Of a DNA stretch of 64,000 nucleotides, positions 5,932 to 44,670 are shown in pieces (the first letter of the stretch is position 1; every line of letters begins with the position of its first letter). The position numbers were made by a program, and so were the translations under genes. The stretch is from Burkholderiales bacterium. GTDB taxonomy: Bacteria > Pseudomonadota > Gammaproteobacteria > Burkholderiales > SG8-39. Below the pieces are notes generated by a model. The model was given only the letters and a program-made list of their open reading frames with translations, was not told the DNA's origin and did not search any database. The DNA lies in contig DATEOW010000038.1 in NCBI GenBank assembly GCA_035273665.1, positions 324 through 64,323 on the forward strand. The letters are read 5' to 3'.

Positions 5932-5932
5932 T

Positions 5933-7855: not shown

Positions 7856-7858
7856 CCC

Positions 7859-11631: not shown

Positions 11632-11643
11632 GCGAGGAACAAA

Positions 11644-28609: not shown

Positions 28610-30821
28610 GCATCAGAATACTGTTGCCGCAGCTACCCCGGGCGCATCGCCGGCCTTTGCCTGGATGGCCGCCGCATTCACGCTCTTCATTATTTACGGG
28701 AGCTTGGTGCCTTTCGATTATGAAGTCACCACAGAGACGGAAGCACTTGCAAAGCTGCGCGCCATGTTGCGACAGCCCATTGGTCCCGATACTTCTTCCG
28801 ACTGGGCAGCCAACGTTCTTTTATTCGTCCCCTTCGCCTTTTTTCTGGCCGGTAGCTTCAAGACGGGACATCGCTGGTCAGATTTGATCAAAGCGGTGCT
28901 GCCGATATTCGGCTTGGCATTTTTACTGGGTGGCGCCGTTGAGTATGCGCAAATCTATTTCCCCCCCCGCAACCCTTCACTCAACGATCTGCTGGCGCAA
29001 AGCGTTGGGACCGGATTAGGTTTATGCGCATGGAAATTTTGGGGACAGGCACTAGGCCTCTGGCTCGATCGTCCAAGTGCGCAGCAAGGCGGCGGATATC
29101 GATCGGTGTTCTTCGCCTATATCGCGGTGCTGGTGATCTACAGTGCGTTCCCTCTCGATCTCAGCATGAGCATGGCGGAGATATACCGTAAGTTGCGCGC
29201 CGGTAAAATCGTCTTGCTCCCATTCAGCTATACCGGCAAAGCGGGCGCAGAGCTTCTCTATGACCTTCTCACCGATGTGTTGATTTGGGTTCCACCGGCT
29301 GTGCTGGCTTGGCGCGCCTTCGGATGGACGTCTTTCCAAGTTTTCGTTCGGCTCATCGCGATGGCGATCGGTATCGAGTTGATGCAGGTCTTTATACTGA
29401 GCCGCATTGCCGACCTTACGGATGTCGTGCTCGCGGGCGCAGGCGTCTTCGCCGGGTTGCGAATAGGTTCTCGTTTTGCCCCTCGGTCCGGTGAGAACAA
29501 GTTGTCCCTGCATGTGGCAGGGTCTGCATGGTTGCCTGTTGCATCGGGTCTTCTATGGGCCGTCGTTGTCATGCTCGTGTTCTGGTACCCCTACAATTTC
29601 GTGCTGGACGCAGACCTGCTCGCACGCCGGTGGCAGGCCGTCAGCAAACTTCCATTCATCGCCTATTTTGCGAGTACGGAATACCGCGCGCTGACAGAGG
29701 CTTTGCACAAATCCATTTTTTTCGCGCCGTTTGGGTTTGCGCTTGCTTGGATAGGGCGATCCCGCAAGCGGCTATTTGTCCTGAGCGGCGTGATGGTGCT
29801 TTTTTTCGCGTGCGGAATAGAGACAGGCAAATTGGTCTTGCCCGGCCGCTCGCCGGATCTCGGCAATATCATCGTGGAAATGTTGGGCGCATTCATGGGC
29901 TACATCTTGTTGTCGCGCAGGATGCACCGCTTCGCACTGTCATCTACGTCACCACGATGGCGTTGGCACACAGAAATTGCGGTGCTCTTGGCCGCTTCTC
30001 TTACGCTCGTACTGGGATTGCTCTGGCCGAGTGCCCCGGCCTTTTTCCATGAAGCTTTGGAGTCGCCTCTCTTACTGAGTTTGGCTGTACTGCTGCTGTG
30101 GTTTTACGCGCTTGCTCGTCTCCCCTTGTTGACGTTCTTTGTGGAACGGAGCGCGCGCCAATTAGCCGCAGTAAGCGCGCTGTACTTTCTATCTGCTTTT
30201 CTTGGCGCCGCGCTTTTGGATATGGTGTTCACGTCGACTGCTTTGATCAACAGTGCGATATGGCAGGCCGTATTGCTCTGGGCCGTCGCTGGGGGTGGGC
30301 TTGGCGTCGCCCGTGCTGCCAAAGCTGTGCAGCGGCCTCACCTAACCTCGATCCTTTGGTTTGTTTCCATCCCTTTCTTATTCGGCGCACTGTATTGGAA
30401 TTTTGAAGGGCTTTCGTGGGAAAACGGCGAGGCTTTGCATTCGAGCAAAGCATGGACGGCCTTCACCTCGATGCTTGCGCTGAGCCTAATAGGAGCGGCG
30501 CCGGCATTTGTCAGTTATCGCGTCGCGTCCAAGGGCGCACACGCAATCTTCGCGGGCGTTCTCGTATGGTTATTCTTGATCGTCGTGAGCTTTTTTATTA
30601 TGCGAGCAGGACTGGCCGAGGCACTCATCATTGAGGGACGCGTTTATACCGGCCTTGAGTATTTCTTGAGTTCCGGGCCGCAGTACGCGCTCAGTCCGTC
30701 GGCCTTACTTCTACGCTATGTGTTGATATGCGGTTGCGCTACGGCGGTGATTGGATTGCTGCAATATCCGATGTGGCGCCGCAGGTTCTCGGTTCAAATA
30801 CCTTCAGGCCGATATAAATAA
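28596..30821 (+). CDS. Polytopic membrane protein with three tandem VanZ-like modules plus a ~300-aa C-terminal membrane domain
   Basis: 741 aa. Three repeats each carry an N/D-hhhF/W-h-P-h segment (NVLLFVPFAFFL, DVLIWVPPAVLA, KSIFFAPFGFAL) and an E-x2-Q/K...R-x4-D-h3-x2-G-x3-G segment (VEYAQIYFPPRNPSLNDLLAQSVGTGLG, IELMQVFILSRIADLTDVVLAGAGVFAG, IETGKLVLPGRSPDLGNIIVEMLGAFMG). Confidence 0.75.
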   Translation: MTDAEHQNTVAAATPGASPAFAWMAAAFTLFIIYGSLVPFDYEVTTETEALAKLRAMLRQPIGPDTSSDWAANVLLFVPFAFFLAGSFKTGHRWSDLIKAVLPIFGLAFLLGGAVEYAQIYFPPRNPSLNDLLAQSVGTGLGLCAWKFWGQALGLWLDRPSAQQGGGYRSVFFAYIAVLVIYSAFPLDLSMSMAEIYRKLRAGKIVLLPFSYTGKAGAELLYDLLTDVLIWVPPAVLAWRAFGWTSFQVFVRLIAMAIGIELMQVFILSRIADLTDVVLAGAGVFAGLRIGSRFAPRSGENKLSLHVAGSAWLPVASGLLWAVVVMLVFWYPYNFVLDADLLARRWQAVSKLPFIAYFASTEYRALTEALHKSIFFAPFGFALAWIGRSRKRLFVLSGVMVLFFACGIETGKLVLPGRSPDLGNIIVEMLGAFMGYILLSRRMHRFALSSTSPRWRWHTEIAVLLAASLTLVLGLLWPSAPAFFHEALESPLLLSLAVLLLWFYALARLPLLTFFVERSARQLAAVSALYFLSAFLGAALLDMVFTSTALINSAIWQAVLLWAVAGGGLGVARAAKAVQRPHLTSILWFVSIPFLFGALYWNFEGLSWENGEALHSSKAWTAFTSMLALSLIGAAPAFVSYRVASKGAHAIFAGVLVWLFLIVVSFFIMRAGLAEALIIEGRVYTGLEYFLSSGPQYALSPSALLLRYVLICGCATAVIGLLQYPMWRRRFSVQIPSGRYK

Positions 30822-33100
30822 GTCTGCCCGTCCACACTGCCCACATAGCAGAAACACTTCAATGCAGGGACCCAATGCCAGCGTTTGAAAGTTCCCGTCG
30901 CTTGGAAGTCCGGAAGTTTCTCGCCGCGCATGGTCAATTGTTTGACTTGCCACTCGCCTTGAAAAGGATCTTCGGGTACCTCTATGCGCCAAAGCACCTG
31001 CTGGCGGCCGCGACGCGCGGACGGCATGTACGCAAAGATGCATTGCAAGTCGGGACAGAACTCAAAACCACAACCGTAGGCGGCGCTTTTGGGAATTTCA
31101 TCGCCGCCCAAACGCCCGGTCTGCCACGCTCGCGGATCCTTTAAATCCAATAAGGACAGTATTGCCTCTCCGCTCGGACGATTGACCCCGAGCATCGCCC
31201 AAGTGTCCGACTTTTCGAGATAAACGCTCGTGCCCATATAGGCGGTTTCTTTCGGCGCCTTGATTTTGAGATCGGTGTGCTGGCGCGAGCGCAAATCGAG
31301 ATAACTTAGGCCGGTGGGTCGCGGTGGAGAAGGTGAGCGCCAGATTCGGTCCCGCTTGGGATCGAACACGCTTCCTTGCACTTTGCCTAGACCATGCGAT
31401 TTCGCCTTGTTGAGCGAAAAACGCGACCACTTCCCCGTATCGAGGTCCAGCACATGCGAGCGATAGGTGTCGCATACGGTGTAGACGATGGTGGAACACA
31501 CGCGCAAAAGACCGCCGCGTTTGTTGCCCATGTAGCTGGGCGGTAGCCAATGCAACGTGTCATGCGTATGCGGGGTGCCTGGCGTTCCGTCGCCATGTTC
31601 GCATTCAATGCGATCGAAACTGGGGTCTTTTTTATGACCTTTGCCATTCATGGCGGTGGTCGGTTCGCCGACACGTTCCCATTTGAGCGTATCAAAGGGA
31701 AAGGCATAAGCCTCCGTGCCGAAATAATCGCCATCGCCGCCGCCATGGACCACAAGCGCGCCGTAGGGTCCCCAACTCTCGGCGATGATGCCGGAGGTCC
31801 ACGCCTTGAGCATTCCGGCTAGTCCTCCATAGGCGAGATACACGCAATCCTTGCTCGGACATGCGCCCACGGCGCGGATATTGTTACGCGCAACACCTTT
31901 GACTTCGCCGGGGGCCGGGAGGAAATTCGCATCGACGGCTTTAGCGTGAGCCGAACCGATGAAGAACAGCGCTTGTGCTAGCGGTTTGTTGTTCCGGCTG
32001 TAATGGAAGATCGCGTCTACCGCACCCGGTCGACCCACGGTGCCGAAAGAGATGATGGCGTCGAGTGTCGGGTCGTAGCTGCTGTAGTTCAAATAGGACG
32101 CCGTGCCTTGCGGATTGCGAGGTTGCGGGGGCCCGGGATGAAGCGCGCCGCTTTCAGTGGACACGAGCACCGACTCAGGACTGCCGCCGTGTGGGCCCCA
32201 TAAAAACAATTCCCGACTTCGGCTCAAGTAGGGCATATCGATCGCCGAATACACCGGCCAAGGCAAGGTCGCGAGTAGGCGATTTTTGAAGCTGCGCAAA
32301 TCCACTTCGAATATGCGTGCGGGCTCGCGTTTGCCGCAGTCGAGAAACCACATGAGCCGGCGCTCGGGGTCTATGGCGCCTTGTCGCCATCTCGCTGCGG
32401 GCTTTGAACGCGCATCGCCATTGGAAAACCGTCGCTCGATGCTGTGGCTCGACAGATCGAGCACGCGAATCGCGGTACCTGCGCCGCCATCGTAATACGC
32501 GTAGTAGACACGGTCGTCGATCGGGTCGAGTACACCGCGCGACCCGCTCTGGCCGCCAAAAAAATCGCCTTCCCTGACTTGCCACTTGCGGTTGCCCGTG
32601 TGATCGAAGCTCATAAGCCGTTGACGCACCGGCGTGGCTGCGCCCGCTTTCCACGGCGTTTCGTATAGGGTTTCCTTGAACATGTAGCCGCCCGCCATCA
32701 GGAGGCGACCGCGTTTGGCATCTTCAACGAGGGTCACTTCATCCGGGTGACAAGGTTGCACCTCCCCCGCGGGGCCCCAATAGGGATACTCAAGGCGCCA
32801 TGCTTCGCGGCCTTCACGCTGGGCGAGGGCATCGTAGCTCCATAAGGTGTTAACCCCGCTTTCGATCGCCCAGGGGTTGCGCATGTCGCCGCCCAAGAAA
32901 TAATGGCGCCGGGTTAACGAGGCGTAGCAGACGCGTGAATGCTTATTCGGTGACGCCGGCATGCTTCGAGCGCCTTGGGGATCAAGCGCGAAGCGTTCGA
33001 CTCGCCACTCCGAATCAGGAACCCGCTCAGTGACGGCACGCGCCACGAAGGGCGAGGCAATCGACACGGCGGCTGCTTTCAGGAGTGTGCGGCGTTTCAT
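30794..33100 (-). CDS. Tat-signal secreted protein, beta-propeller-like (Kelch-type GG doublets), function unknown
   Basis: Start taken at ATG 33100 (MKRRTLLKAAAVSIASPFVARA, a twin-arginine signal). The TTG extension to 33154 is rejected. About 768 aa, beta-rich, with recurring hydrophobic-GG motifs (YFLGGD, LLMAGGY, YYDGGAG, VVHGGGDGDY). Confidence 0.75.
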   Translation of the reverse strand: MKRRTLLKAAAVSIASPFVARAVTERVPDSEWRVERFALDPQGARSMPASPNKHSRVCYASLTRRHYFLGGDMRNPWAIESGVNTLWSYDALAQREGREAWRLEYPYWGPAGEVQPCHPDEVTLVEDAKRGRLLMAGGYMFKETLYETPWKAGAATPVRQRLMSFDHTGNRKWQVREGDFFGGQSGSRGVLDPIDDRVYYAYYDGGAGTAIRVLDLSSHSIERRFSNGDARSKPAARWRQGAIDPERRLMWFLDCGKREPARIFEVDLRSFKNRLLATLPWPVYSAIDMPYLSRSRELFLWGPHGGSPESVLVSTESGALHPGPPQPRNPQGTASYLNYSSYDPTLDAIISFGTVGRPGAVDAIFHYSRNNKPLAQALFFIGSAHAKAVDANFLPAPGEVKGVARNNIRAVGACPSKDCVYLAYGGLAGMLKAWTSGIIAESWGPYGALVVHGGGDGDYFGTEAYAFPFDTLKWERVGEPTTAMNGKGHKKDPSFDRIECEHGDGTPGTPHTHDTLHWLPPSYMGNKRGGLLRVCSTIVYTVCDTYRSHVLDLDTGKWSRFSLNKAKSHGLGKVQGSVFDPKRDRIWRSPSPPRPTGLSYLDLRSRQHTDLKIKAPKETAYMGTSVYLEKSDTWAMLGVNRPSGEAILSLLDLKDPRAWQTGRLGGDEIPKSAAYGCGFEFCPDLQCIFAYMPSARRGRQQVLWRIEVPEDPFQGEWQVKQLTMRGEKLPDFQATGTFKRWHWVPALKCFCYVGSVDGQTYLYRPEGI

Positions 33101-33171
33101 GCGGGACGAAGATTTTCCATTTTTAACACTCCCGCGTGCCCAGGGGTGGTACAAAGGCGAGCCCGAGGGGT

Positions 33172-33187
33172 TGCAAGGCAGGTGCCT
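33172..33187 (-). promoter_or_regulatory. Candidate sigma54 (-24/-12) promoter for the Tat-signal propeller-like gene
   Basis: The - strand reads AGGCAC-CTGCC-TTGCA (GG-N10-GC; consensus TGGCAC-N5-TTGCW). It lies about 70 nt upstream of ATG 33100. Confidence 0.55.
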
Positions 33188-33286
33188 GTCGACATTCTTT
33201 ACAAAACGACTTCATGGCCTGTTTTGTCGGATAACAAACATAAGAAATGACTTTTCGAAACAATATGCTGCCCACCATGCGGGTCT

Positions 33287-33302
33287 TGGCATCAGCGTTG
33301 CT
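33287..33302 (+). promoter_or_regulatory. Candidate sigma54 (-24/-12) promoter for the 33358-36289 operon
   Basis: TGGCAT-CAGCG-TTGCT (GG-N10-GC). The -12 element lies about 55 nt upstream of ATG 33358. A sigma54-dependent activator (PrsR) is encoded 7 kb downstream. Confidence 0.6.
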
Positions 33303-33357: not shown

Positions 33358-33933
33358 ATGAGCCTGGAACGTCGACGTTTAGTGAAAGGTGCCTTGGCGG
33401 CACCCCTGATTTTGACCGTGCGCACGGCCTCCGCTGGGGGCAAGGGCGGTGGTCATCATGGGGGCGGCGGTGGAGGGGGCGGCAATGTGATGCTCAGCGT
33501 CGGGGCGTGTCTAGCGCGCGACGATGAGCGATCCAAGGGTTATGACGGTCCCAAGGCCGTCCTGTCGAAATACGAAAAAAGCGATAACTGGCTTCGCAAG
33601 AAAGTGGAAGTCTGCAAGCTCAAGTGGAACTCTTCAGGCAAGCATGACAAGCCGGACGCCGATTACGACGCAAAAGCACTCTACGTTCTAGGCCACGACA
33701 ACAAGTGGTGGAAGTTGGACGCTGCCGACAAGTGGGGGAAGAATCCCAAATACACCGGTATGTCCAAACCCCAATATTCTCGTAAATCGACCGACAGCTG
33801 GCGTTATGCGCTGGTCCAGGTCGATCCGAATAGCGGCGAAGTCGTCGGTTTCTCCTGGGAAAAAGAAGACGGGCAATTGGCGACCTGCACTTGCTGGGTT
33901 TCCTTCGTCGCCGCCAACAAAAATCGCGCTTAA
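33358..33933 (+). CDS. Tat-signal small secreted protein with Gly/His-rich mature N-terminus, unknown function
   Basis: MSLERRRLVKGALAAPLILTVRTASA has a twin-arginine motif and an ASA cleavage site. It is followed by GGKGGGHHGGGGGGGGN and then a Lys/Trp/Asp-rich domain with four Cys. No PEP-CTERM tail. Confidence 0.7.
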   Translation: MSLERRRLVKGALAAPLILTVRTASAGGKGGGHHGGGGGGGGNVMLSVGACLARDDERSKGYDGPKAVLSKYEKSDNWLRKKVEVCKLKWNSSGKHDKPDADYDAKALYVLGHDNKWWKLDAADKWGKNPKYTGMSKPQYSRKSTDSWRYALVQVDPNSGEVVGFSWEKEDGQLATCTCWVSFVAANKNRA

Positions 33934-33948
33934 GTTTCTCGTCGTTTC

Positions 33949-34248
33949 GTGGGCGAGCAACACGTATCCCAAAGATGGTCTTTGCGTTTTCCCGCTGAAA
34001 CGCAGATCTGCCATTTCGATGGCGAATCACTAGTCTTCAATCCTCTATCGTGGGAAACCCATCTTCTGAACGTCTCGGCCGCCGAGGTCGTTTCCGTTTT
34101 GTCCGAGGGACCGCAATACTTCGATATTTTGGTCGGACGTATGCGTGAAGCCGGAATGAATGTCCAGAATGGCGTATCTGTAGAGGATCAGCTTGAGGGC
34201 CTGTTAATCGAGTTGGAGAGCCTGGGCATAGCGATTCGCAGCCTATGA
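33949..34248 (+). CDS. PqqD-family peptide-binding protein (HPr-rel-A system PqqD-like chaperone type)
   Basis: 99 aa with a GTG start 15 nt after the upstream stop. FDGESLVFNPLSWETHLLNVSAAEVVSVL matches the PqqD/RRE pattern (x-h-h-F-N-x-x-x-x-x-x-x-x-LN-x-x-A-x-x-h). Confidence 0.75.
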   Translation: MGEQHVSQRWSLRFPAETQICHFDGESLVFNPLSWETHLLNVSAAEVVSVLSEGPQYFDILVGRMREAGMNVQNGVSVEDQLEGLLIELESLGIAIRSL

Positions 34249-35162
34249 GGCGACTTAACGAGTTGGCGCCCGATCAACTCCGCGGAGCGCTGCAAGCGGA
34301 AGGCATCGGACTATCTCTTGGCACGGCGCGCGTCCATATTCGCAGCGATGTACCTGCACTCGCGCCTGCATTGGCACGCGTTTATGGGCAATTCCCTGTC
34401 GAAGAGCCGAGTGGATTTTTTGATGTCGCTCCAAGACTTGAACTTGTTCGCCGTCCTGGGCAATTGTTCCGTGCGCAACTCCGCTTTTTTGTAGACGGGG
34501 AAGTGCCTTTCGAGCTTTTTCCCGGCGATACGCATTTACCTTTGTTGGAATGGGGCTTGAATTGGTGCCTTGCCGACCGTTCGAATCACAAATTGTTGCT
34601 GCATGCGGGCGTCGTAGAGAAAAACGGGCGCGCTGCGATCCTTCCAGCCTTGCCGGGATCGGGAAAGAGCACCTTGACGGCGGCCCTCAGTGCAAGAGGT
34701 TTTCGGCTTCTTTCCGATGAGTTTGGCGTGCTTGACCCGATGGATGGGACGCTGCGCGCATTGCTGCGCCCCATCGCATTAAAGAACGAATCGATTGAGG
34801 TCATCCGCCGGTTTCATCCTGACGCGGTGCTTGGTCCACGGTTCCCGAAAACGCGCAAAGGCGACGTCGCGCATATGGCGCCAGATCGCGCCAGCGTGGA
34901 TCGACGAGATGAGCCGGCAGTGCCGCATGTCGTGCTTTTTCCCGCCTACGAAGCGGGGGCGGCGACGGTGCTGGAGGAATTGCCGCCGGCACGCTGTTTC
35001 GCCAAGCTCTCCACGAATTCCTTCAACTACGAAGTACTTGGGCCCGCCGGATTTCGTGCCGTAACACGGCTTGTCGAATCTACGCGTGGCTACAGCCTTC
35101 GCTATAGCACGCTTGAGGAAGCGGTCGAGCGCGTGCAGCGCCTGTTCGAGAGCGAACGATGA
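34245..35162 (+). CDS. HPr-kinase-related P-loop kinase (HprK-related kinase A type)
   Basis: ATGA overlap with the PqqD-like gene. HAGVVEKNGRAAILPALPGSGKSTLTAALSARGFRLLSDEF parallels the HprK catalytic core (H-G-V-x-V...G-x-S-G-x-GKS...RG-x-x-L-h-x-D-D/E). Confidence 0.85.
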   Translation: MRRLNELAPDQLRGALQAEGIGLSLGTARVHIRSDVPALAPALARVYGQFPVEEPSGFFDVAPRLELVRRPGQLFRAQLRFFVDGEVPFELFPGDTHLPLLEWGLNWCLADRSNHKLLLHAGVVEKNGRAAILPALPGSGKSTLTAALSARGFRLLSDEFGVLDPMDGTLRALLRPIALKNESIEVIRRFHPDAVLGPRFPKTRKGDVAHMAPDRASVDRRDEPAVPHVVLFPAYEAGAATVLEELPPARCFAKLSTNSFNYEVLGPAGFRAVTRLVESTRGYSLRYSTLEEAVERVQRLFESER

Positions 35163-36289
35163 GTGCCGCTTCTACCCTGTGTTGGTTCAGGCCGGCGCCG
35201 CACATCGTAGATTTGCTGGGGTTGCTTGGCGGGCGCACAAGCGCTGCGGACCTATCACTCGAGCAATGGGACGTGTTGGTGCGCACGGCGAGACGTTTGC
35301 GCCTCCTGGGAACGGTTGCGTACCGCCTACGGGCAGATAGTGATCAATGGGCCGCTGTTCCAGGGCCGGTACGGGCGCATTTTGAATCCGCGCTGACCAC
35401 CCTCGCCTTTCGACGGCAGAAAGTGCTGCTGGAAATGGATAGCGTCCGCCAAGCCTTGAGTGACCCTGCTATCCCAATCGTCCTGCTTAAAGGGGCGGCT
35501 TATATTGCTCAGAATCTCCCTTTGGCGCATCAACGGCTGGTAGGCGATCTCGATCTGCTGGTCGATCGGGATCGCTTGGACGAGGTTGAAACCAGACTGA
35601 TCGATAGCGGATGGGAATCGCTAAAACCGGATCCTTACGATCAAAAATATTATCGAGATTGGTCACATGAATTGCCGCCGATGCAATTGCCTGGGCACGC
35701 TTTGGAGTTGGATGTACACCACAACATCCTTCCCCCTACCGGGCGTCTTCATCCTCAGGCGGCGCAGCTCATACGCGATGCCATTCCGCTAGAAGAAGGT
35801 TTTTTCCGCGTGCCGCATCCTGCCGATCAGGTGCTGCATGCCGCAGTCCATCTGTTTCAGGATTCCGATTGCCTTTTTCGTGCGCGCGATCTAGTGGATA
35901 TCGACGAACTTATCCGAAACTTCGGGCAAACGCCGTCTTTCTGGGATGAGCTGATATCGCATGCGCGAGTGCATGGTATAGAACGGCCACTCTGGTATGC
36001 ACTGGACTGTGGCGTCGCCATCTTCGATACGCCTGTGCCCAATACCCTGTTCGAAAAATTAAATACTAGGGGTCCGGGCTATGCGGCCCGTACAATGATG
36101 CGCCTTTTGCTTCCGAAAGTACTTTTTACCGAACACCCAGAACGCACTCCTGCCATATCGGAGCGCGTTGCCCGTTGGCTCCTCTTCCTTCGATCGTTCT
36201 GGTTGCGCATGCCCTTAGGGCTATTGCTGCTGCATAGCGCCATGAAGCTGATAAGAAACTTCCGCAAAACGTCAGAGCGTACTGAATAG
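35159..36289 (+). CDS. NTP_transf_5-type nucleotidyltransferase family protein
   Basis: ATGA overlap with the kinase gene. VLLKGAAYIAQNLPLAHQRLVGDLDLLVDRDRLDEVETRLIDSGWE matches the uncharacterised nucleotidyltransferase family (KG...R-x-x-x-D-h-D-L-L-V). Confidence 0.8.
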   Translation: MSAASTLCWFRPAPHIVDLLGLLGGRTSAADLSLEQWDVLVRTARRLRLLGTVAYRLRADSDQWAAVPGPVRAHFESALTTLAFRRQKVLLEMDSVRQALSDPAIPIVLLKGAAYIAQNLPLAHQRLVGDLDLLVDRDRLDEVETRLIDSGWESLKPDPYDQKYYRDWSHELPPMQLPGHALELDVHHNILPPTGRLHPQAAQLIRDAIPLEEGFFRVPHPADQVLHAAVHLFQDSDCLFRARDLVDIDELIRNFGQTPSFWDELISHARVHGIERPLWYALDCGVAIFDTPVPNTLFEKLNTRGPGYAARTMMRLLLPKVLFTEHPERTPAISERVARWLLFLRSFWLRMPLGLLLLHSAMKLIRNFRKTSERTE

Positions 36290-36312: not shown

Positions 36313-36328
36313 TGGCATGCCGGTTGCT
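36313..36328 (+). promoter_or_regulatory. Candidate sigma54 (-24/-12) promoter at the head of a 648-bp non-coding leader
   Basis: TGGCAT-GCCGG-TTGCT (GG-N10-GC), 24 nt after the stop at 36289. It has the same hexamer and -12 element as the site at 33287. Confidence 0.55.
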
Positions 36329-36937
36329 GGCAGTTGCATCGGCGGGGAAGTTCGAGTTCGCAGGGGCGCTGCAGCGCTAAGTGGGTTGGGCGCAAGTGCT
36401 ACGCGTATTTGTCAATCTTTAACAAACCCAAACAAACCGCTATGGCATCTTAAGCGCCCGTAGTCTCGCCGTAATTAGGCTGAGCTTGTGTACTAGACGA
36501 TGATACATAGCTCTAGTCTTAGGCCTAACGAGGAATTGAGAACATGGTGTTTGGTATGACACGATGAAGCGTGAGTAAGGCAACCGAAGGAGCAGTTTAA
36601 GCACTTAAAAATAGAGTTAGGAGAGGCAATACTGCGGTTCGTTACAGCCGCCTGAAGCGTCAGCGAATGTTGCATATGCATTCGGTCAAATCCAGGCAAA
36701 CACCGTAGTCAATGGAAGTCCTGTCCCCTGCGTCACATAGCGACGCAATTAAAAGAACAACAGTTTTCTCGAGTTTTGCAGTATCGCCGTCCAAAAAGAA
36801 GCGAAGGACGTATAGGTTGCTTTTGCCCAGTGGAACCGCAGTAACAATGTGCAGCGCGGGGGAATGCAGTCTTGTAATAAAAAAGAGCGATAACAAAAAC
36901 GATAAACGGAGGATAAAAAGATGAGGGGTTTGCTTGT

Positions 36938-38326
36938 ATGGTTAACTTGTTTCGCCACTACGTACCGTTGGCAACGATTCTGCAGTTAGCGCTCGAAGCG
37001 GGATTATTTTTCGCCGCTATTCTGCTTGCGGTAATGATGCAGACGCACAGCACGTTGCTGTCGAGTAGTCTGCCCATTCTGCCGGCCTTCGCGTTCGCAG
37101 CCTTGATGGTTTGCGTCAACAGCGCGCTTGGACTGTACAGACGCGATAGCGCGCCCTCCTTTTCGCATATGGCGCCTCGCCTATTGGTCGCCCTATTGAT
37201 TGGGTTCCCCCTTGCTTACGCCCTTTTTTCGGCGCTTCCGCATGGCGGCCTCTATCAGGATGCGCTGGGCTACACGGTCCTCCTCGTATTAGCCGGCTTA
37301 TTAATTTTACGTCGTGTCCTAAGCGCTTCGATCTTGGGCGGTACTTTGCTTAGCCGCCGTGTGCTCATTCTCGGAACGGGCGCAGACGCCTTAGCGGTGG
37401 ATCAAGCCTTAATGGGGCCGCGCGGCTCGGGTTATACCGTGGTTGGCTTCTATCCCATTAGCAATAACGTGAACGTATCGGTTCCACAGCACCGAGTGCT
37501 GCAACCGGTCGAGTCGCTGCAATCCCTGATCCGATATCTCGCCGTTGACGAAGTGATCGTCGCAGTACGCGAACAACGCGGTGGCGTCGTGCCGATGAGT
37601 TGTCTGCTCAACTGCCGTCTCGAGGGTGTCCGCGTGACCGACCTGCCCGGTTTTTATGAACGTGTGCGGGGCGAGGTGCCCATCGAATCGCTAAAGGCGA
37701 GCTGGCTGATTTATGGCGAAGGCTTTAGGCAGGGGCGCATGCGCAATATCGTCAAACGCGCCTTCGACGTTGCGACCGCGGGTACGCTGCTCGTCCTCAC
37801 TTTTCCGCTCATGGTGCTCGTGGCATTGACCATCCTGTTCGAGGGCGGCGGCGCCGTCATTTATCGTCAGGAACGTGTGGGCCGGGGCGGCCGACCGTTC
37901 ACGGTCTACAAATTCCGCAGTATGGTCGCCGACGCGGAAGGCGATGGCCAAGCGCGGTGGGCCCAAACGAATGATCCACGGGTCACCGCGTTTGGAAAAT
38001 TTATCCGCCGCACGCGTATGGACGAGTTACCGCAACTTTGGAATGTTCTCAAAGGCGAAATGAGCTTTGTGGGTCCTCGCCCTGAGCGTCCCCAGTTCGT
38101 CGGCGAATTGGAGCAATCGATTCCTTATTACGGCGCGCGTCATAGCGTCAAACCGGGTCTGACTGGATGGGCGCAAGTGCGTTATAGCTACGGCGCGTCT
38201 GTGGAAGACGCGACTCGCAAACTACAGTTCGACTTGTATTACGTCAAAAACCATTCACTCTTTCTCGATTTGTTGGTTCTGGTCGAAACGGTGCGTGTGG
38301 TCCTGTGGGGTGAAGGGGCGCGCTGA
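36938..38326 (+). CDS. Priming sugar transferase (bacterial sugar transferase family, EpsB/PEP-CTERM-associated type)
   Basis: MVNLFRHYVPLATILQLALEAGLFF is an N-terminus typical of the family. C-terminal catalytic domain KRAFDV...YRQERVG...FKFRSM...DELPQLWNVLKGEMSFVGPRPERP. Confidence 0.9.
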   Translation: MVNLFRHYVPLATILQLALEAGLFFAAILLAVMMQTHSTLLSSSLPILPAFAFAALMVCVNSALGLYRRDSAPSFSHMAPRLLVALLIGFPLAYALFSALPHGGLYQDALGYTVLLVLAGLLILRRVLSASILGGTLLSRRVLILGTGADALAVDQALMGPRGSGYTVVGFYPISNNVNVSVPQHRVLQPVESLQSLIRYLAVDEVIVAVREQRGGVVPMSCLLNCRLEGVRVTDLPGFYERVRGEVPIESLKASWLIYGEGFRQGRMRNIVKRAFDVATAGTLLVLTFPLMVLVALTILFEGGGAVIYRQERVGRGGRPFTVYKFRSMVADAEGDGQARWAQTNDPRVTAFGKFIRRTRMDELPQLWNVLKGEMSFVGPRPERPQFVGELEQSIPYYGARHSVKPGLTGWAQVRYSYGASVEDATRKLQFDLYYVKNHSLFLDLLVLVETVRVVLWGEGAR

Positions 38327-38423
38327 GGCCGCATCAGCGCTTAGTGCCGGATCGGTGGGATGACACTCGCCACCGGCGCGCTCCCGTAATACATTCCCGA
38401 TTATTTAAGCCCGAAAGGCTCCC

Positions 38424-40517
38424 TTGAATCCCACCGCTTTTGCCGACCCAGCGACCTGGAGTTACGGCTTCGCTGCGCTAGGGTTTACTGCTTTTGCGAT
38501 TCAACTCGCACTGGCATGGCGCGGCGGCTCGCGCGCTTGGTGGTTGCTCGCCGCCGTTTCGCTTGGGGCGTCGTGGGCAGCGGCGGGTCTGGGTTTCGTC
38601 CTCACGCAAAACAGCCTTTGGTGGACGCTAAGCCGTTGGCTCCAACTTGCGCAGATCGCAGCATGGTGCGTTTTCTTGTTGTTGCTCGCCACTGATCGAG
38701 ACAATAGCCGGCCGTGGGAATCGTTGTTGTTCAAGGGCGGGCTCTTTGCGCTCATCGTGCTTCTTTTGGGAGCCGGCTATTCGCCGTCTTATCCGCCTGC
38801 CGATGCAGTGCCTACCCAGGATGCGCGGTTTGGTTATTCCGCCATGGTGGGCCTTGCTATTCTTCAATTGGTCTTGCTCGAACAAATCTGGCGCAATGCG
38901 CCGGAAGCGAACCGCTGGGCGCTCAAGCCGCTTTGCTTGGGCCTTGGAGCCGCTTTTATTTATAACTTGTACATGTACGCCGAGGCCTCGCTTTTCGGCG
39001 TCTTGAGCCAGAATCTTTGGAGTGCGCACGCCGCAACACAAGCCTTGGTGATTCCCTATATCGCCATCGCGGCGGCCCGCAACAAACAGTGGACGATCGA
39101 CATCCACATGTCGCGGCAAGTGGTGTTCCACTCTACCGCGCTGCTCGGATGCGGCATTTATCTTTTGCTTGCATCGGCGATCGGCTATTACATTCGTTTT
39201 TTTGGCGGGAGCTGGGGCGGCACTTTACAAGTGGCGCTTCTTTTCGGCGCTTTATTGTTGCTAGGCATGCTCTTTTCGTCCGGGACGCTGCGCAGCAAGC
39301 TGCGCGTGTTCGTCAATAAGAATTTCTTTTCCTATCGTTATGACTATCGGGAAGAGTGGCTTCGTTTCACTCGACGCTTATCGAGCCGCGAGGCAACGGC
39401 AAATTTGAATGAGACCTCGATTCAAGCGCTCGCCGATCTGGTCGAAAGCCCCGCGGGCGCTTTATGGCTTCGCCGGGAAGGGAAAGTCTTCCGGCAGGTG
39501 GCCAGATGGAATATGCCTGCGGTCGCAGAATCGGAGTCCGACACCAGTTCGCTGGCCCTATTCCTCGCGCGAACAGGATGGGTTGTCGATGTTTCCCAAT
39601 ATCGACTCAAACCCGAACTTTACGATGGGCTTGTGTTGCCTGACTGGATGGAACGCTCGGAGGACGTATGGATCGTGCTTCCTCTGCAGGGCGCCGAAGA
39701 GTTGAACGGCTTTGTCGTGCTCGCGAACTCAAGGGTGAAACTCGATATCAATTGGGAAGTTCTGGATTTACTTAAAACGGCCGCCCGCCAGACTGCGAGC
39801 TACTTGGGCCATGTGAATGCCGTCGAAGCGCTGATGGAGGCGCGCAAGTTCGACGCTTTCAACCGCATGTCCGCTTTCGTCGTTCACGATCTGAAAAACC
39901 TTGTGGCGCAATTGAATCTGATGATCAAGAATGCGGAACGCCATCGCCACAATCCCGAGTTCCAGCGCGATATGATGGACACCGTACAGCACGTCGCCAG
40001 CAGAATGAATCATCTGTTGATGCAACTGCGCGCCGGCGCCACGCCGATAGAGAACGCCAAAGCAATCGATCTCAGCGCGATTGTTCGACGTGTGGAACGC
40101 GCCAAGGGCGCCGGAGAGCGGTTAAGTATTCAAGTGGAGGAAAACCTAACTGTATGCGGCCATGAGGAACGACTTGAACACGTCGTCGGGCACCTCGTTC
40201 AGAATGCACTCGACGCAACGGAAGCCGGCGGACAGGTAGAGATTCGCGTTATTCCCGCAAGCGACGCCGAAGCGTTGCTGGAAGTCGAGGACAGCGGTAT
40301 CGGAATGAGCCCCGAATTCGTGCGCGAGCGTTTGTTCCGACCTTTTCAAAGTACCAAACCGACCGGCATGGGGATCGGCGCATACGAGAGCGCACAATAC
40401 CTTCAGGGGATTGGCGCTCGTTTGCAAGTTCAGAGCGTCCCCGGACAGGGAACGCGCATTCAGGTATATCTGCCTCGGCCGAAGAACGCCGAAATCAACT
40501 TGGTTCAAGCCGCATGA
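38424..40517 (+). CDS. prsK: XrtA/PEP-CTERM system sensor histidine kinase
   Basis: About 300-aa polytopic N-terminal domain followed by a GAF-like region. H-box FVVHDLKNLVAQL, N-box LVQNALDA, G-boxes EVEDSGIGM and GMGIGAYES. TTG start in the ORF track, so the exact start is uncertain. Overlaps prsR by 4 nt. Confidence 0.85.
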   Translation: MNPTAFADPATWSYGFAALGFTAFAIQLALAWRGGSRAWWLLAAVSLGASWAAAGLGFVLTQNSLWWTLSRWLQLAQIAAWCVFLLLLATDRDNSRPWESLLFKGGLFALIVLLLGAGYSPSYPPADAVPTQDARFGYSAMVGLAILQLVLLEQIWRNAPEANRWALKPLCLGLGAAFIYNLYMYAEASLFGVLSQNLWSAHAATQALVIPYIAIAAARNKQWTIDIHMSRQVVFHSTALLGCGIYLLLASAIGYYIRFFGGSWGGTLQVALLFGALLLLGMLFSSGTLRSKLRVFVNKNFFSYRYDYREEWLRFTRRLSSREATANLNETSIQALADLVESPAGALWLRREGKVFRQVARWNMPAVAESESDTSSLALFLARTGWVVDVSQYRLKPELYDGLVLPDWMERSEDVWIVLPLQGAEELNGFVVLANSRVKLDINWEVLDLLKTAARQTASYLGHVNAVEALMEARKFDAFNRMSAFVVHDLKNLVAQLNLMIKNAERHRHNPEFQRDMMDTVQHVASRMNHLLMQLRAGATPIENAKAIDLSAIVRRVERAKGAGERLSIQVEENLTVCGHEERLEHVVGHLVQNALDATEAGGQVEIRVIPASDAEALLEVEDSGIGMSPEFVRERLFRPFQSTKPTGMGIGAYESAQYLQGIGARLQVQSVPGQGTRIQVYLPRPKNAEINLVQAA

Positions 40518-41866
40518 GCGAAAAACGCAAGCCTTTGCTGATTATCGAAGACGACCCGGCATTGCAGAAGCAGATGCGGTGGGCTTTCGACGCCTATGAA
40601 ACGGTGGTCGCGGACGACTACGAGAGCGCCATTACGCAATTGCGTCGCTACGAACCGGCAGTTATCACGATGGATCTGGGTTTACCCCCGCATCCGGACG
40701 ACACCCGGGAGGGTTTCCGGCTGTTACAAGATCTGTTGGCGCTTGCGCCCGATGTGAAAGTCATCGTGCTGACGGGGCAGCATGACCGGGACAATGCGCT
40801 GAAAGCGATTGGTATGGGGGCGTACGATTTTTTCGCCAAACCTTTCGAGCCGGAGATGCTCAGCCTCACCATCGAGCGGGCCTTTAGATTGTTCGAGTTG
40901 CAGGAGGAGAATCGCCGTTTGCAAGCAGTGGCGATGGAGGGCGATCCCAATGGTTTGATCACCCGCGACCCGGCTATGCAACGCGTCTGCCGCATGGTGG
41001 AGAAAGTAGCCGCGACCAACGCCACCGCGCTCCTTTTGGGCGATTCTGGCACGGGCAAGGAGTTACTCGCGCGGGCGCTGCATCGTCAGTCACCGCGTAA
41101 AGACAATCGTTTTGTCGCGATCAACTGCGCCGCTATCCCGGAGAACCTGCTCGAAAGCGAGTTGTTCGGCTATGAGAAGGGTGCCTTCACCGGTGCTGCG
41201 AAGACAACGCCGGGAAAAATAGAAACCGCTCATAACGGCACGCTTTTCCTCGATGAGATCGGCGATCTGCCGCACCCATTGCAAGCCAAACTCTTGCGGT
41301 TCTTGCAGGAGCGCGTCATCGAGCGGGTCGGCGGGAGAGAGGAAATTCCGGTCGATGTACGTATCGTCTGCGCAACGCATCAGCATCTCAAAGATCTCAT
41401 CGCCAACGGGCGCTTCCGAGAAGACTTGTACTATCGGCTGGCGGAAGTGGTTTTGGAGATCCCGCCTTTACGCGAGCGGCCGGGCGATGCAAGTCTGCTT
41501 GCACACGTCTTTGTTCGCCGCTTCGCCAGTGAACAGAAGCGCGGAAGCATGACCTTGTCTCAAGAGGCGCTTGCCGCGATTGAGGCGCATCCATGGCCCG
41601 GGAATGTTCGGGAATTGGAAAACACCATCAAGCGGGCAGTGATCATGTCGGAGGGACAGACCCTGCGCGCGGATGACATTGGTTTGGACGAGGTGGAGGA
41701 GAACCCCGAAGCCCTCAATCTACGCCATGTGCGAGAAACCGCGGAAAAACAGGCGGTGGTACGCGTCTTGGGCCGCGTCAATGGCAATCTAAGCCGCGCA
41801 GCGGAGTTGCTCGGCGTCAGCCGTCCCACCTTGTACGATTTGATGCATCGATTCGGACTCAAATAA
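40514..41866 (+). CDS. prsR: PEP-CTERM-box sigma54-dependent response regulator
   Basis: REC domain (LLIIEDDPALQKQM, TMDLGLPP). AAA+ domain with Walker A GDSGTGKE, ESELFGYEKGAFTGA (GAFTGA) and Walker B TLFLDEIGDL. C-terminal HTH AAELLGVSRPTLYDLM. Confidence 0.9.
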   Translation: MSEKRKPLLIIEDDPALQKQMRWAFDAYETVVADDYESAITQLRRYEPAVITMDLGLPPHPDDTREGFRLLQDLLALAPDVKVIVLTGQHDRDNALKAIGMGAYDFFAKPFEPEMLSLTIERAFRLFELQEENRRLQAVAMEGDPNGLITRDPAMQRVCRMVEKVAATNATALLLGDSGTGKELLARALHRQSPRKDNRFVAINCAAIPENLLESELFGYEKGAFTGAAKTTPGKIETAHNGTLFLDEIGDLPHPLQAKLLRFLQERVIERVGGREEIPVDVRIVCATHQHLKDLIANGRFREDLYYRLAEVVLEIPPLRERPGDASLLAHVFVRRFASEQKRGSMTLSQEALAAIEAHPWPGNVRELENTIKRAVIMSEGQTLRADDIGLDEVEENPEALNLRHVRETAEKQAVVRVLGRVNGNLSRAAELLGVSRPTLYDLMHRFGLK

Positions 41867-41883
41867 AAGCAGGACTATAAGTC

Positions 41884-44670
41884 ATGACTACAAAAAACGT
41901 TCTAAGAAGAATTGCTTCCCTCAGCGCGCTCCTATGTTGTTCGGTCGCGCTGCTTGCCGGTTGCGGGGAGAAGCCCGAAGCGCTCGTTGCCTCCGCGAAG
42001 GAGTATCGCGCAAAGAACGACCACAATGCCGCGATCATTCAGTTGCGCAATGCGTTGCAACAGCAGCCCAACAATGCCGAAGCGCGTTATCTACTCGGTA
42101 TGTCGCTGTATGCGACGCGCGATTTCTTTACTGCCGAAAAGGAACTGCAGAAAGCGCTGGAGCTCGGCTATTCGGCGGAGCGCGTGCTGCCGGTACTCGG
42201 ACGGGTCATGCTTGAAATCGATAGAGAAGCGGCGCTCTTGTCGCAATACGGCAATCAAAAACTCGCTGACGCCGATGCACAAGCGACTTTTCAAACGGTT
42301 TTGGGCGACGCTTATTTAAACGAGCGCAAGGTGGCCGAAGCCAAGGCGGCCTACGTTAATGCACGCAGCGCCAAGCCTGGCTATGTGCCTGCGCGCGTTG
42401 GGGAGACGCGGCTACTTGCTGCGCAAGGCAAACTGGAGGAAGCCGAGCTTGCGGTGTTGGACATCCTTCGCGAGACACCCGACAGCATAGAAGCGATGAT
42501 GCTTCACGCGGAATTGCTGAGCAACCGGCAAAAGCTGGAAGAAGCGCAGAAGCTGTATGCGCGCATCCTTGAACTGCAGCCCGATAACCGCCCGGCACGC
42601 AATGCGCTGATCGCCACCTTGCTCAACGCAGGCAAGCTCGACAAAGCCAAAGAAGAGATCGAAGCGGCTAAAAAAATCATCGGCAAAAGAGATATACGGC
42701 TGATGTTCTCTGAGGCAATGCTGAATCTGAGGCAAAAGAACTACACACAGGCCCGCGATATATCGCTGCAGATTTTGCGTGTCGCGCCGGATCATGGCCC
42801 AACTCTCTTTGTTGCAGGCAGCGCAGAATTTGCATTGGGCTCGCTCGCGCAAGCCGAAGAGCAATTGCGCAAGGCGCTCGATCGTATGCCGCGACACGCG
42901 GGGGCTCGTCGCGCATTGGTTGCGGTGTATCTACGTATGGGTCAAGGCACACGCGCGGCCGAAACGCTGAAAGATCTGCTCGACCAACCGGAACCGAGCA
43001 GCGAGGTCTACGCGCTCGCAGGCGAGGTTGCGCTGGCCAACAATGACTTGAAGAAAGCCGAAGAATACTTGCAGCGAGCGGCCGCGCTCGACAAAGACAA
43101 TGCGGCGCTGCGTTCGCGCCTTGGACAGCTTCGCTTGTCCACCGGCGAGGTCGCCGAAGGCATAGCGGATTTGGAAGCGGCCTCGGCGGCAAATTCCAGC
43201 GATATTAAATCGGATCTTCTCCTTATTCTTGGGCACTTGCGTAGTGGGCAGTACGACAAGGCGAAAGCCGCGATGGAGGTTTTAGAGAAGAAGCAACCGA
43301 ATAACCCATTTACCTTCAATATTAAAGGCGCGCTCAGCGTGTCCATGGGCGATCACCAAGGTGCGCGCGCGAGCTTCGAGCAAGCACTGGCGTTGGCGCC
43401 GACCTATTCACCGGCGCTGCTTAATCTTGGACGTCTGGACGCGGCAAACAAAGAGCCGGATGCCGGACGAAAGCGTTTCGAGGGCGTCTTGGCTAAAGAA
43501 CCGAACAACGAGCAAGTGCTGCTTGCGTATTTGCAGTACCTCGAGGAAATACGGGCGCCCGAACAGGAAGTGCTGGGCATCGCCAAGCGGTCGGTTGAAA
43601 GCAACAGTAGTTCTGCCATCGCGCGTATCGCGTTGATCAATTCTTATATTAAAAGCAATGATAAAAAAGGCGCGTTAGACGCGGCGCAGGATGCGCTGGC
43701 CGCCTTTCCCACGCAGGCTGGTGTACTGGATATCGCCGGTCGCGCCCAGCTCATGGCGGGCGAAACAAACCAGGCGATTTCCACCTTCAGCAAACTCGCA
43801 GGGCTGAATCCACAATCGCACGCCGCGCAGATGCGGTTGGCGCAAGCTTATGCCGCGAGCAAGGATGTCGACCGTTCGGTAGAGGCCTTGCGTCGAGCGT
43901 TGGCAATCAAGCCGGACCTCCTTTCCGCGCATAGCGATATCGTTGCCGTGTTGACAGCCAATGGTCGATTCCAAGAAGCCTTGACGGAAGCGCGCCAAGT
44001 GCAGAAACGCTATCCCCAGCTCGGCCTCGGACATGTCTTGGAGGGCGACATTCACGCATCGCAGAAGAAGACAGCGGAGGCGCAGGCGGCTTATCGCGCA
44101 GCACTCAAGTTCGAACCTGACAATACCGGCTTGTTCATCAAACTCCATCGGACTTTAAGTGCTGGGGGGGCGCCGCAAGAAGCAGAGGCGCTGGCTGCGC
44201 GATGGTTGAAAGAACACCCGAAAGATATCGGTGCGCGCGCCTACATCGCGGAAAAAGAAATGGCGGACCGCGATTACAAGACCGCGAGCGCGCATTACAA
44301 GATCATTGTTGAGGCCCAACCCGGCAACGTCATTGCGCTGAACAACTTGGCTTGGTTAGCCGGCCAGCTGGGCGATCCTGCCGCCCTGACTTATGCGGAG
44401 AAAGCCAAGCAGATCGCACCGCAAAACCCGGCGGTGCTCGATACGCTCGGCATGCTGTTGCTCGACAAAGGCGATACCGCGCAAGCGTTGTCGCTTTTGG
44501 AGCAGGCGATCAAGCTCGCGCCGCAAGCGCCCGGCATTCGTTTGAACTATGCGAAAGCGCTCATGAAATCGGGCAACAAAGACGCCGCCCGTCGCGAATT
44601 ACAGAGCTTGGCCAAGCACGAGAACCAGCAAATAAGGGCTGAAGCGGAAGCGGCGTTGAAAACGCTTTGA
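41884..44670 (+). CDS. prsT: PEP-CTERM system TPR-repeat lipoprotein
   Basis: Lipobox LLAGCGEK, then about 900 aa of TPR repeats. Positioned after prsK-prsR as in described XrtA loci. Confidence 0.85.
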   Translation: MTTKNVLRRIASLSALLCCSVALLAGCGEKPEALVASAKEYRAKNDHNAAIIQLRNALQQQPNNAEARYLLGMSLYATRDFFTAEKELQKALELGYSAERVLPVLGRVMLEIDREAALLSQYGNQKLADADAQATFQTVLGDAYLNERKVAEAKAAYVNARSAKPGYVPARVGETRLLAAQGKLEEAELAVLDILRETPDSIEAMMLHAELLSNRQKLEEAQKLYARILELQPDNRPARNALIATLLNAGKLDKAKEEIEAAKKIIGKRDIRLMFSEAMLNLRQKNYTQARDISLQILRVAPDHGPTLFVAGSAEFALGSLAQAEEQLRKALDRMPRHAGARRALVAVYLRMGQGTRAAETLKDLLDQPEPSSEVYALAGEVALANNDLKKAEEYLQRAAALDKDNAALRSRLGQLRLSTGEVAEGIADLEAASAANSSDIKSDLLLILGHLRSGQYDKAKAAMEVLEKKQPNNPFTFNIKGALSVSMGDHQGARASFEQALALAPTYSPALLNLGRLDAANKEPDAGRKRFEGVLAKEPNNEQVLLAYLQYLEEIRAPEQEVLGIAKRSVESNSSSAIARIALINSYIKSNDKKGALDAAQDALAAFPTQAGVLDIAGRAQLMAGETNQAISTFSKLAGLNPQSHAAQMRLAQAYAASKDVDRSVEALRRALAIKPDLLSAHSDIVAVLTANGRFQEALTEARQVQKRYPQLGLGHVLEGDIHASQKKTAEAQAAYRAALKFEPDNTGLFIKLHRTLSAGGAPQEAEALAARWLKEHPKDIGARAYIAEKEMADRDYKTASAHYKIIVEAQPGNVIALNNLAWLAGQLGDPAALTYAEKAKQIAPQNPAVLDTLGMLLLDKGDTAQALSLLEQAIKLAPQAPGIRLNYAKALMKSGNKDAARRELQSLAKHENQQIRAEAEAALKTL

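Follow-up and report, generated by a model that had tools for sequence, protein, structure and literature searches.

Linear polyphosphorylated peptides (LPPs) of Bacillota are encoded by clusters inside capsular polysaccharide loci, in which a precursor of 35-200 residues, conserved in its leader and variable beyond it, is accompanied by LppB, a discrete recognition element (RRE) of the kind used by ribosomally synthesized and posttranslationally modified peptides (RiPPs), the HprK-like kinase LppK, the NTP-transferase LppN, the archaeal-type (SipW-like) signal peptidase I LppS, which is the leader peptidase, and an MsbA-like exporter (Popov et al., Nat Commun 2026, PMC13381572). LppK adds up to four phosphates to core Ser3, and the leader is cut after T-1; in the consensus YxxPxVLxHQxIxFET/xxS, where the slash marks the cut, cleavage follows P+12 and the phosphorylated Ser3 stands at P+15 (PMC13381572). 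RREs are known to dock on a [Y/W]xxPx[L/V/I/F/A] motif in the cognate precursor leader (PMC13381572). The pseudomycoidin precursor receives a phosphate on a serine from the HprK-like PsmK, and the NTP-transferase-like PsmN, with an essential Asp-x-Asp pair, is required for one or two hexoses on the phosphate (Zyubko et al. 2019, PMC6993621). Here, we describe a four-gene cassette that joins members of the same three enzyme families to a protein with a twin-arginine-type leader, located at 33358-36289 of a 64,000-nucleotide stretch of Burkholderiales DNA (contig DATEOW010000038.1; the window, always meant at its full length).

With somewhat better than even confidence, we read the four genes as one operon for a RiPP-like protein-modification cassette, whose substrate, the product of the first gene (g1), would be phosphorylated, extended, exported by twin-arginine translocation (Tat) and coregulated with PEP-CTERM proteins. 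By analogy, the cassette most likely works like the LPP system, and it looks like a Gram-negative counterpart of it that is undescribed in the literature searched. LPPs and paeninodins are called Bacillota-restricted in their source, which makes no mention of Proteobacteria, Tat, or PEP-CTERM (PMC13381572). Its Supplementary Data 2 carries the label PqqD for the LPP RRE and NTP_transf_5 for the NTP transferase, and lists TIGR04352 as the best hidden Markov model (HMM) for 65 kinases of LPP and paeninodin neighborhoods (PMC13381572). Full-text searches for TIGR04352, TIGR04353, or their names found no paper, searches for HPr kinase with PEP-CTERM and for RRE with twin-arginine returned nothing relevant, and PF14907 surfaced in one unrelated paper. 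An earlier note on this DNA, drawn from the letters alone, knew of no experimental function for such families; for the homologous enzyme sets, this statement is outdated by the work on PsmK/PsmN in 2019 and on LppK/LppB/LppN in 2026.

The cassette and its leader-bearing partner

The four open reading frames (ORFs) of the cassette all lie on the plus strand. They encode the candidate precursor g1 (33358-33933, 191 aa), a member of what we call family A; g2 (33949-34248, 99 aa, GTG start), a discrete RRE of the PqqD family; g3 (34245-35162, 305 aa), an HprK-related kinase A; and g4 (35159-36289, 376 aa), an NTP_transf_5 protein with a nucleotidyltransferase fold. The tight packing reported in the earlier note was re-found at the same coordinates, with 15 nt between g1 and g2 and ATGA overlaps joining g2 to g3 at 34245 and g3 to g4 at 35159, and the motifs that it had singled out, i.e., the PqqD/RRE pattern LVFNPLSWETHLLNVSAAEVV of g2, the P-loop ALPGSGKST of g3, and GDLDLLV of g4, are all in the sequence. 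Its family assignments likewise held when the profiles were run, each protein scoring above the curated cut-off: g2 on TIGR04353 (52.8 bits, cut-off 35), g3 on TIGR04352 (346.3 bits, cut-off 200, covering model positions 3-280 of 280), and g4 on PF14907 (178.2 bits, cut-off 31.2).

A profile of the g2 family (alignment A4) matched TfuB1 (6jx3_B), a lasso leader-binding protein, with E = 1.9e-8 over positions 4-86 of 91; its matches to TbiB1 and PqqD were not significant (E 0.07-0.2; TbiB1, E = 0.066). Searches of PDB sequences with g2 alone or g4 alone gave no match. In g3, the P-loop G138-S-G-K-S142 and the acidic pair D158-E159 contain invariant residues (among them S139, G140, K141, S142, D158, and E159), and a kinase profile placed both elements on the Walker A motif and the Asp-Asp pair of HPr kinase structures, although at a weak E = 0.16. 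Across 76 sequences, G112, D130, D132, and many His/Asp residues of g4 are at least 93% conserved; G112 with D130-x-D132 makes up the G...DxD signature of nucleotidyltransferases.

Gene order, observed directly in many genomes, ties a protein such as g1 to these enzymes. We surveyed 80 genomic loci around relatives of the g3 kinase, 44-58% identical to it, mostly from Burkholderiales, Rhodocyclales, and Thiobacillus with some Gammaproteobacteria, and searched them as six-frame ORFs with tblastn, phmmer, and iterated HMM profiles. A PqqD-like ORF immediately precedes the kinase in 73 loci, nearly all of those that retain upstream sequence, and an NTP_transf_5 gene follows it in 77. Directly 5' of the PqqD-like gene, all 76 evaluable loci carry a gene for a protein with a twin-arginine leader, which belongs to family A in 64 and to a second family, B, in 12; three of the remaining four loci lose upstream sequence, and one is ambiguous, with two cassettes. 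Relatives of g1 with 22-34% identity were recovered by tblastn and phmmer in 14-24 loci, always ending right before the PqqD-like gene, and the iterated profile extended family A to its 64 loci at E = 1e-20 to 1e-47. The iterated HMMs for g2 and g4 were contaminated by overextended and antisense shadow ORFs in this GC-rich DNA, and only positions and top hits were used from them. An exhaustive profile search yielded 624 family A cluster representatives at E <= 1e-10, and a reverse look-up of two family A proteins returned the identical gene order. A word-indexed search of 5.8 billion proteins had given a single 91% relative and made g1 look like an orphan, an impression overturned by the locus searches.

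Clustering of neighbors within about 10 kb of the 80 loci found no other universally conserved gene, and among the conserved neighbors no peptidase and no transporter. A conserved short precursor ORF beside the cassette was also missing, the only candidates being shadow ORFs inside neighboring genes. The ORFs of the window and this survey thus agree with the earlier view of the module as one without cyclase, protease, radical-SAM enzyme, or short precursor ORF. As for the concern that the trio might occur without a small-protein gene next to it, the survey never found it so in its 76 evaluable loci.

Residues 1-26 of g1 form a twin-arginine-type leader, RRRLVKGALAAPLILTVRTASA, with a hydrophobic-x-x-P-x-hydrophobic motif made by L13, P16, and I18. 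Family A is very divergent (mean column identity, 17%), and its conservation is concentrated in the leader, where mean pairwise identity is 50% versus 22% in the mature domain. Signal peptides usually show the opposite, being less conserved than the mature part. Numbered as in g1, residues R5, R6, P16, and S182 never vary, the last being within a C-terminal SCWxS motif, and conservation reaches 90% or more at S47, C51, R80, and C179. The leader consensus reads RR-x-L-[LIV]-[KR]-G-x-[AFL]-A-A-P-x-[VIL]-L-T-[VL]-x-S-G-S-A-x-A-A-[ST]-S-x-x-C, with a distance of 11 from RR to P in 54/58 sequences and of 18-19 from P to Cys in 44/58. The layout of a Tat signal is present, as A-R-R-[RK]-L-[LIV]-[KR]-G, an uncharged stretch, and A-x-A in the family and as ERRRLVKG...TASA in g1. 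An HMM of the leader alone matched exactly one gene per locus and missed other Tat-like proteins; it had no second match in the window, where a 786-aa ORF on the opposite strand also escaped it. The Gly/His richness that the earlier note took as a trait of g1 turned out to be a private insertion at residues 27-43, seen only in g1 and its 91% relative and not a feature of family A.

Families A and B are both without a Pfam or NCBIfam model, scans of g1 itself against both collections found no family, and the family A members in databases are all named "hypothetical protein." The C terminus of g1, ...CTCWVSFVAANKNRA, has neither a PEP motif nor a hydrophobic helix, and g1 is hence not a PEP-CTERM protein. 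An AF2 model of g1 built from 69 sequences had a predicted local distance difference test score (pLDDT) of 55, too low to use, and was replaced by a model of the family-typical P0140 (147 sequences; pLDDT of 80.5 overall and >90 in most of the mature domain). The latter predicts an N-terminal helix with the conserved Ser and Cys, a beta-sheet, and a C-terminal helix with SCWxS, i.e., a mature part that is probably a folded protein of 115-230 aa. Foldseek found no match for this model in the PDB (best E = 3, TM-score 0.19). The conserved cysteines (C51 and C179 in g1) fall in the N- and C-terminal helices of the model, and their equivalents may form a disulfide. Family A members of Accumulibacter/Rhodocyclaceae are short, at 116-172 aa (loci L045, L056, L061, L079, L033, L039, L049, and L067), and have an extra conserved tail after SCWNS that ends in N-[LVI]-[LI]-x(-P), e.g., GDNVLIP or SSNVIN.

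Family B, unrelated to family A, fills the same slot upstream of the PqqD-like gene in Thiobacillus, Massilia/Pseudoduganella, and one member of the Rhodocyclaceae (loci L047, L052, L057, L059, L060, L062, L064, L068, L075, L077, L078, and L080, at about 9040-9725). Its proteins of about 205-235 aa start with a twin-arginine leader and continue with C-x-SPS...SG-x-LS...C-x-G-x-[ST]-PGYWK.

Set against the LPP leader, family A keeps the spacing of the elements that matter there. The xxPxVL motif recurs (A/L/F at P-3, V/I/L at P+2 in 52/58, and L/M/F at P+3), alanines at P+10 and P+12 (48/58 each) form the A-x-A site where LPP leaders are cut after P+12, and a serine occupies P+15, the predicted mature position 3, in 47/58 (81%). 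This common spacing of putative docking motif, predicted cleavage site, and conserved serine is the strongest single hint that the g1 family may be to g2 and g3 what LppA is to LppB and LppK. The two systems also share the trio of RRE, HprK-like kinase, and NTP_transf_5 protein, matched here by family labels, and the setting of a polysaccharide locus, which for the cassette is the locus of the window. Two RRE subtypes can be told apart in alignment A4, F[ND]PxxWxTH and WxxFSPx[ST]GETH, which go with L/A and F, respectively, at leader position P-3 (16/17 for the second subtype); this possible covariation follows clades and was not used as evidence.

The differences are as plain. No SipW-like peptidase or MsbA-like exporter belongs to the cassette in the 80 loci; the family A leader is of the twin-arginine type with A-x-A and lacks HQxIxFET and the Tyr of LPP leaders; family A proteins have, besides their predicted folded domain of 115-230 aa, two conserved cysteines; and the hosts are Beta- and Gammaproteobacteria instead of Bacillota. 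Its phylum is a different one, and peptidase, exporter, and LPP leader consensus are all missing; the cassette is therefore not a member of the LPPs as they are defined. Lasso systems of the paeninodin type (PadeK/PsmK, PsmN) likewise place an HprK-like kinase in an RRE pathway, and the Asp-x-Asp of PsmN has its counterpart in D130-x-D132 of g4, but they possess a macrolactam cyclase and a B2 protease, both absent from the module and neither universally conserved in the loci, and they carry the phosphoserine at the C terminus of a peptide of about 20 residues, whereas the candidate substrate here is a protein. In the HPr-rel-A system of NCBIfam (TIGR04352, HprK-related kinase A, plus TIGR04353, PqqD family peptide chaperone), to which the adjacent g3 and g2 belong by their scores, the names are computational, and the leader-bearing partners, families A and B, lie outside the NCBIfam and Pfam models.

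A sigma-54 promoter, probably of the PEP-CTERM type

The XrtA locus recognized in the earlier note is genuine: exosortase A (XrtA) is encoded at 4357-5931, and genes for a TIGR03013 glycosyltransferase, PrsK, PrsR, and PrsT follow directly downstream of the cassette at 36938-44670, the three Prs genes being 2-8 kb 3' of it. A sigma-54 (-24/-12) site, TGGCATCAGCGTTGCT, lies on the plus strand at 33287-33302, 55 nt before the g1 ATG, as the same note had proposed; the 64 kb contain just one other match to TGGCAY-N5-TTGCW, against an expectation of 0.13 matches in all. Between 33000 and 37000, we found no sigma-70-like promoter, and terminator-like hairpins were no commoner than chance. The simplest reading is therefore a single transcript that starts from the sigma-54 promoter.

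On the same strand, 83 nt upstream of the sigma-54 site, lies a 17-mer with TTTACA at its end, TGTCGACATTCTTTACA (33187-33203), which is a candidate PrsR enhancer box; nowhere else does the window match TGTCG-N6-TTTACA with one mismatch or fewer. Both elements recur in the surveyed loci. In 26/55 loci, the 300 nt before the family A gene contain a sigma-54 site that agrees with at least 10 of 11 consensus positions (background, 0.016). TTTACA is the commonest hexamer upstream of these sigma-54 sites, at a fixed distance, and exact TGTCG-N6-TTTACA occurs in 32/80 loci, mostly 100-300 nt 5' of the leader-protein gene, where chance would give about 0.6 (11 specified bases, 2.5 Mb). Allowing one mismatch, 41 of the 70 evaluable loci have the box within 420 nt upstream of the leader gene (background, 0.009 per 400 nt), and 35 of the 70, family B loci included, combine it with a sigma-54 site 40-110 nt downstream.

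Such an arrangement has been described for PEP-CTERM genes of proteobacteria, where the text of Haft et al. (2006, PMC1569441) links a bipartite upstream site to PrsK, PrsR, and PrsT and gives its layout as a 17-nt motif with TTTACA at its end, separated by 32-92 nt (mean, 63) from a sigma-54 -24/-12 site. Box, 83-nt spacer, and sigma-54 site of the window fit this description, and the box is probably the PEP-CTERM motif 1, as judged against its description in the text (PMC1569441). In Aquincola, pepA is a PEP-CTERM gene with a promoter of this kind that is RpoN dependent and needed for floc formation (PMC9850573). The cassette would thus share with the PEP-CTERM/XrtA regulon its bipartite promoter, while g1 is devoid of a PEP-CTERM domain; its probable control by sigma-54 with a PrsR-type box also sets the cassette apart from LPP clusters. 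The conserved box with its sigma-54 site supports the coregulation with PEP-CTERM and exopolysaccharide (EPS) genes suggested in the earlier note and would place the cassette under the control of PrsR.

Of the 39 loci whose 10-kb flanks are complete, only 10 have Prs or EPS/EpsB genes inside them. In some 15 loci, the upstream neighbors instead fit hemA-prfA-prmC in size and order, prmC being the only one recognized, by eye. The scarcity of Prs and EPS genes near the loci portrays the cassette as an autonomous module that keeps its PEP-CTERM-type promoter wherever it is located.

A proposed modification route and its alternatives

In the route that we propose, the g1 leader would act both as a Tat export signal and, through its hydrophobic-x-x-P-x-V/I-L motif, as a docking site for g2. 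Leader-bound g2 would recruit g3, which would phosphorylate, possibly repeatedly, the conserved serine behind the leader, typically P+15 or mature residue 3 and S47 in g1, where the flexible Gly/His linker could let this residue reach the tethered kinase. The phosphoserine would next be extended by g4 with a sugar or nucleotide-derived group; on the precedent of PsmN, phosphorylation followed by glycosylation on the phosphate is more likely than nucleotidylylation. The folded, modified protein would leave by the general Tat pathway, and signal peptidase I would cut the leader at A-x-A. Because the cassette has no dedicated peptidase or exporter, these two presumably do both jobs and would stand in for the SipW-like peptidase and MsbA-like exporter of LPP clusters. 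Finally, the sigma-54 promoter and PrsR-type enhancer box would have g1 made together with PEP-CTERM proteins and exopolysaccharide. The idea of the earlier note that the module modifies its cotranscribed g1 is supported by the synteny, the leader conservation, and the TfuB1 match.

A number of observations weigh against this route. The Tat signal that had been assigned to g1 stands by its RR motif and A-x-A layout but not by the curated Tat-signal models, none of which matches g1, and its family A homologs stay below the model thresholds (PF10518, 15 bits versus 22.7; TIGR02811, weak). The residue at P-3 is aromatic in 17/58 family A sequences, whereas known RRE motifs have Tyr/Trp there, and family B leaders lack the proline motif, so that the docking motif is not universal. 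In g1, the 17-residue insertion shifts the serine from P+15 to P+31, which makes the assignment of S47 weaker for this protein than for the family, and the invariant S182 of SCWxS is an alternative acceptor site. In the P0140 model, the conserved Ser and Cys sit in a helix of a folded domain and would be less accessible unless modified before folding. LppN had no activity in the heterologous LPP experiment (PMC13381572), which leaves PsmN as the single precedent for the role given to the NTP_transf_5 protein. The kinases surveyed span 44-58% identity to g3, and the proteobacterial system as a whole is known from sequence comparison and analogy.

The alternative that survives best, though we consider it unlikely, is that g1 is merely a coexpressed exported partner, e.g., a periplasmic matrix- or EPS-binding protein, and that the enzymes act on something encoded elsewhere, for instance PEP-CTERM proteins or a peptide missing from the annotation. 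The promoter type common to the cassette and PEP-CTERM genes would suit it, as would the absence of the proline motif from family B and the predicted mature domain of family A, a large one for a substrate that depends on an RRE; besides, we infer the binding and modification of g1 from sequence. LPP precursors themselves, however, reach 200 aa (PMC13381572), and their distances from the proline to the cleavage site and to the serine equal those of family A. A passenger would hardly be conserved in its leader and not in its mature domain, nor would two unrelated families be expected to fill one slot, both with a leader and a Ser/Cys-bearing N terminus. A substrate encoded elsewhere also fits poorly with the lack of a conserved small ORF near the cassette and with the roughly three-quarters of full-flank loci that have no Prs/EPS gene within 10 kb.

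The conserved element of family A is a twin-arginine signal, and known Tat chaperones are small cytoplasmic binders encoded beside their Tat substrates. The presumed relation of g2 to g1 resembles theirs, and HPr kinase proper acts reversibly, as a kinase/phosphorylase. It could be imagined, then, that g2 is mainly a proofreading or escort chaperone like TorD, DmsD, or NapD and that phosphorylation by g3 is a transient export gate, but we hold this to be quite improbable. In LPPs and pseudomycoidin, the phosphates persist on the processed product (PMC13381572, PMC6993621). Unlike the Tat chaperones, g2 is of the PqqD/RRE family, with a lasso B1 match, and is coupled to a kinase and a transferase; a Pfam scan found no family for it at E <= 0.01, TorD/DmsD and NapD being included in Pfam-A. 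The NTP_transf_5 gene in 77/80 loci, moreover, argues for a further covalent step.

To our knowledge, discrete RREs have no role with sugar substrates. That g3 and g4 serve the making of the XrtA exopolysaccharide, with one of its sugar, lipid-linked, or nucleotide-sugar intermediates as their substrate and the small proteins as accessories, might be thought from the position of the window's module between glycosyltransferase and EPS genes and from the nucleotidyltransferase fold of NTP_transf_5, but it is very unlikely, given that discrete RRE, the serines of proteins or peptides phosphorylated by the characterized relatives of HprK-like kinases (PMC6993621, PMC13381572), the Prs/EPS genes near only 10/39 full-flank loci, and the 15 or so loci that adjoin the genes fitting hemA-prfA-prmC in length and order.

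Should modification of g1 by the cassette prove right, the logic of RRE, HprK-like kinase, and NTP_transf_5 protein, experimentally shown on Bacillota peptides between 2019 and 2026, would extend to Proteobacteria and would reach beyond peptides to folded exported proteins, with a general export signal, Tat, doubling as the recognition leader. The analysis offers a concrete candidate substrate for TIGR04352 and TIGR04353, families with computational names only, and defines two leader-bearing families without a Pfam or NCBIfam model, one of which, family A, has a confidently predicted fold with no PDB match. It also adds the cassette as a new candidate member of the PrsK/PrsR sigma-54 regulon, the one that governs PEP-CTERM proteins and flocculation in bacteria of activated sludge. 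A proteobacterial system that is amenable to genetics and linked to a floc phenotype could shed light on the biological role of LPPs and paeninodins. A far-reaching version, speculative and in our estimate improbable, has the Tat signal doubling as a RiPP leader that a lasso-type RRE reads on a folded 15-20 kDa protein, a phosphoserine-linked glycan built by the kinase and the NTP_transf_5 protein at mature residue 3, and an exported product that covalently primes, anchors, or cross-links the XrtA/PEP-CTERM exopolysaccharide matrix; if true, this would be a proteophosphoglycan of bacteria that floc or biofilm formation requires.

Neighboring genes and variant loci

The cassette of the window is flanked by glycosyltransferase and EPS genes. 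Upstream, these comprise a TIGR03108 amidotransferase, the stp1 and stp3 glycosyltransferases, and a FemAB-like protein. A second sigma-54-type site, TGGCATGCCGGTTGCT, is located at 36313-36328. It follows the g4 stop by 24 nt, precedes the TIGR03013 glycosyltransferase gene (36938) by about 610 nt, and has no TGTCG-N6-TTTACA box before it; the stretch between this site and the gene (36329-36937) is long and untranslated. An Rfam scan of the 64-kb window gave no match. Divergently from g1, the 786-aa ORF (30794-33154, minus strand) has a twin-arginine-like N terminus of its own, MKRRTLLKAAAVSIASPFVARA, belongs to no Pfam or NCBIfam family, and has a relative in just one of the 80 loci (L019).

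The window encodes, besides the bona fide TIGR03108 gene at 5933-7855, an AsnB-like paralog of 610 aa at 22370-24202 on the minus strand, which falls short of the TIGR03108 cut-off (279 versus 817 bits), starts with MSGICG, and misses the usual Cys2 nucleophile. Lasso cyclases are AsnB homologs, and homologs of this paralog directly adjoin the cassette in six loci (L003, L006, L014, L016, L022, and L081), which makes a functional tie conceivable. A role of the paralog as a lasso-type cyclase was considered but set aside, the gene being 9 kb away on the other strand with no B2 protease present; AsnB-like amidotransferases are, moreover, routine in XrtA loci.

Some loci depart from the standard layout. 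The family A gene of L001 (9164-9799) is frameshifted, with leader and mature part in different frames; in L012 (9695-10927), the PqqD-like gene and the kinase read as a single ORF; and L073 carries two tandem cassettes (5724-8025 and 9718-12043). In the family A member of L008 (9025-9672), a lipobox (LAGC) and a poly-Gly linker replace A-x-A, the poly-Gly insertion being at the same place as the Gly/His insertion of g1.

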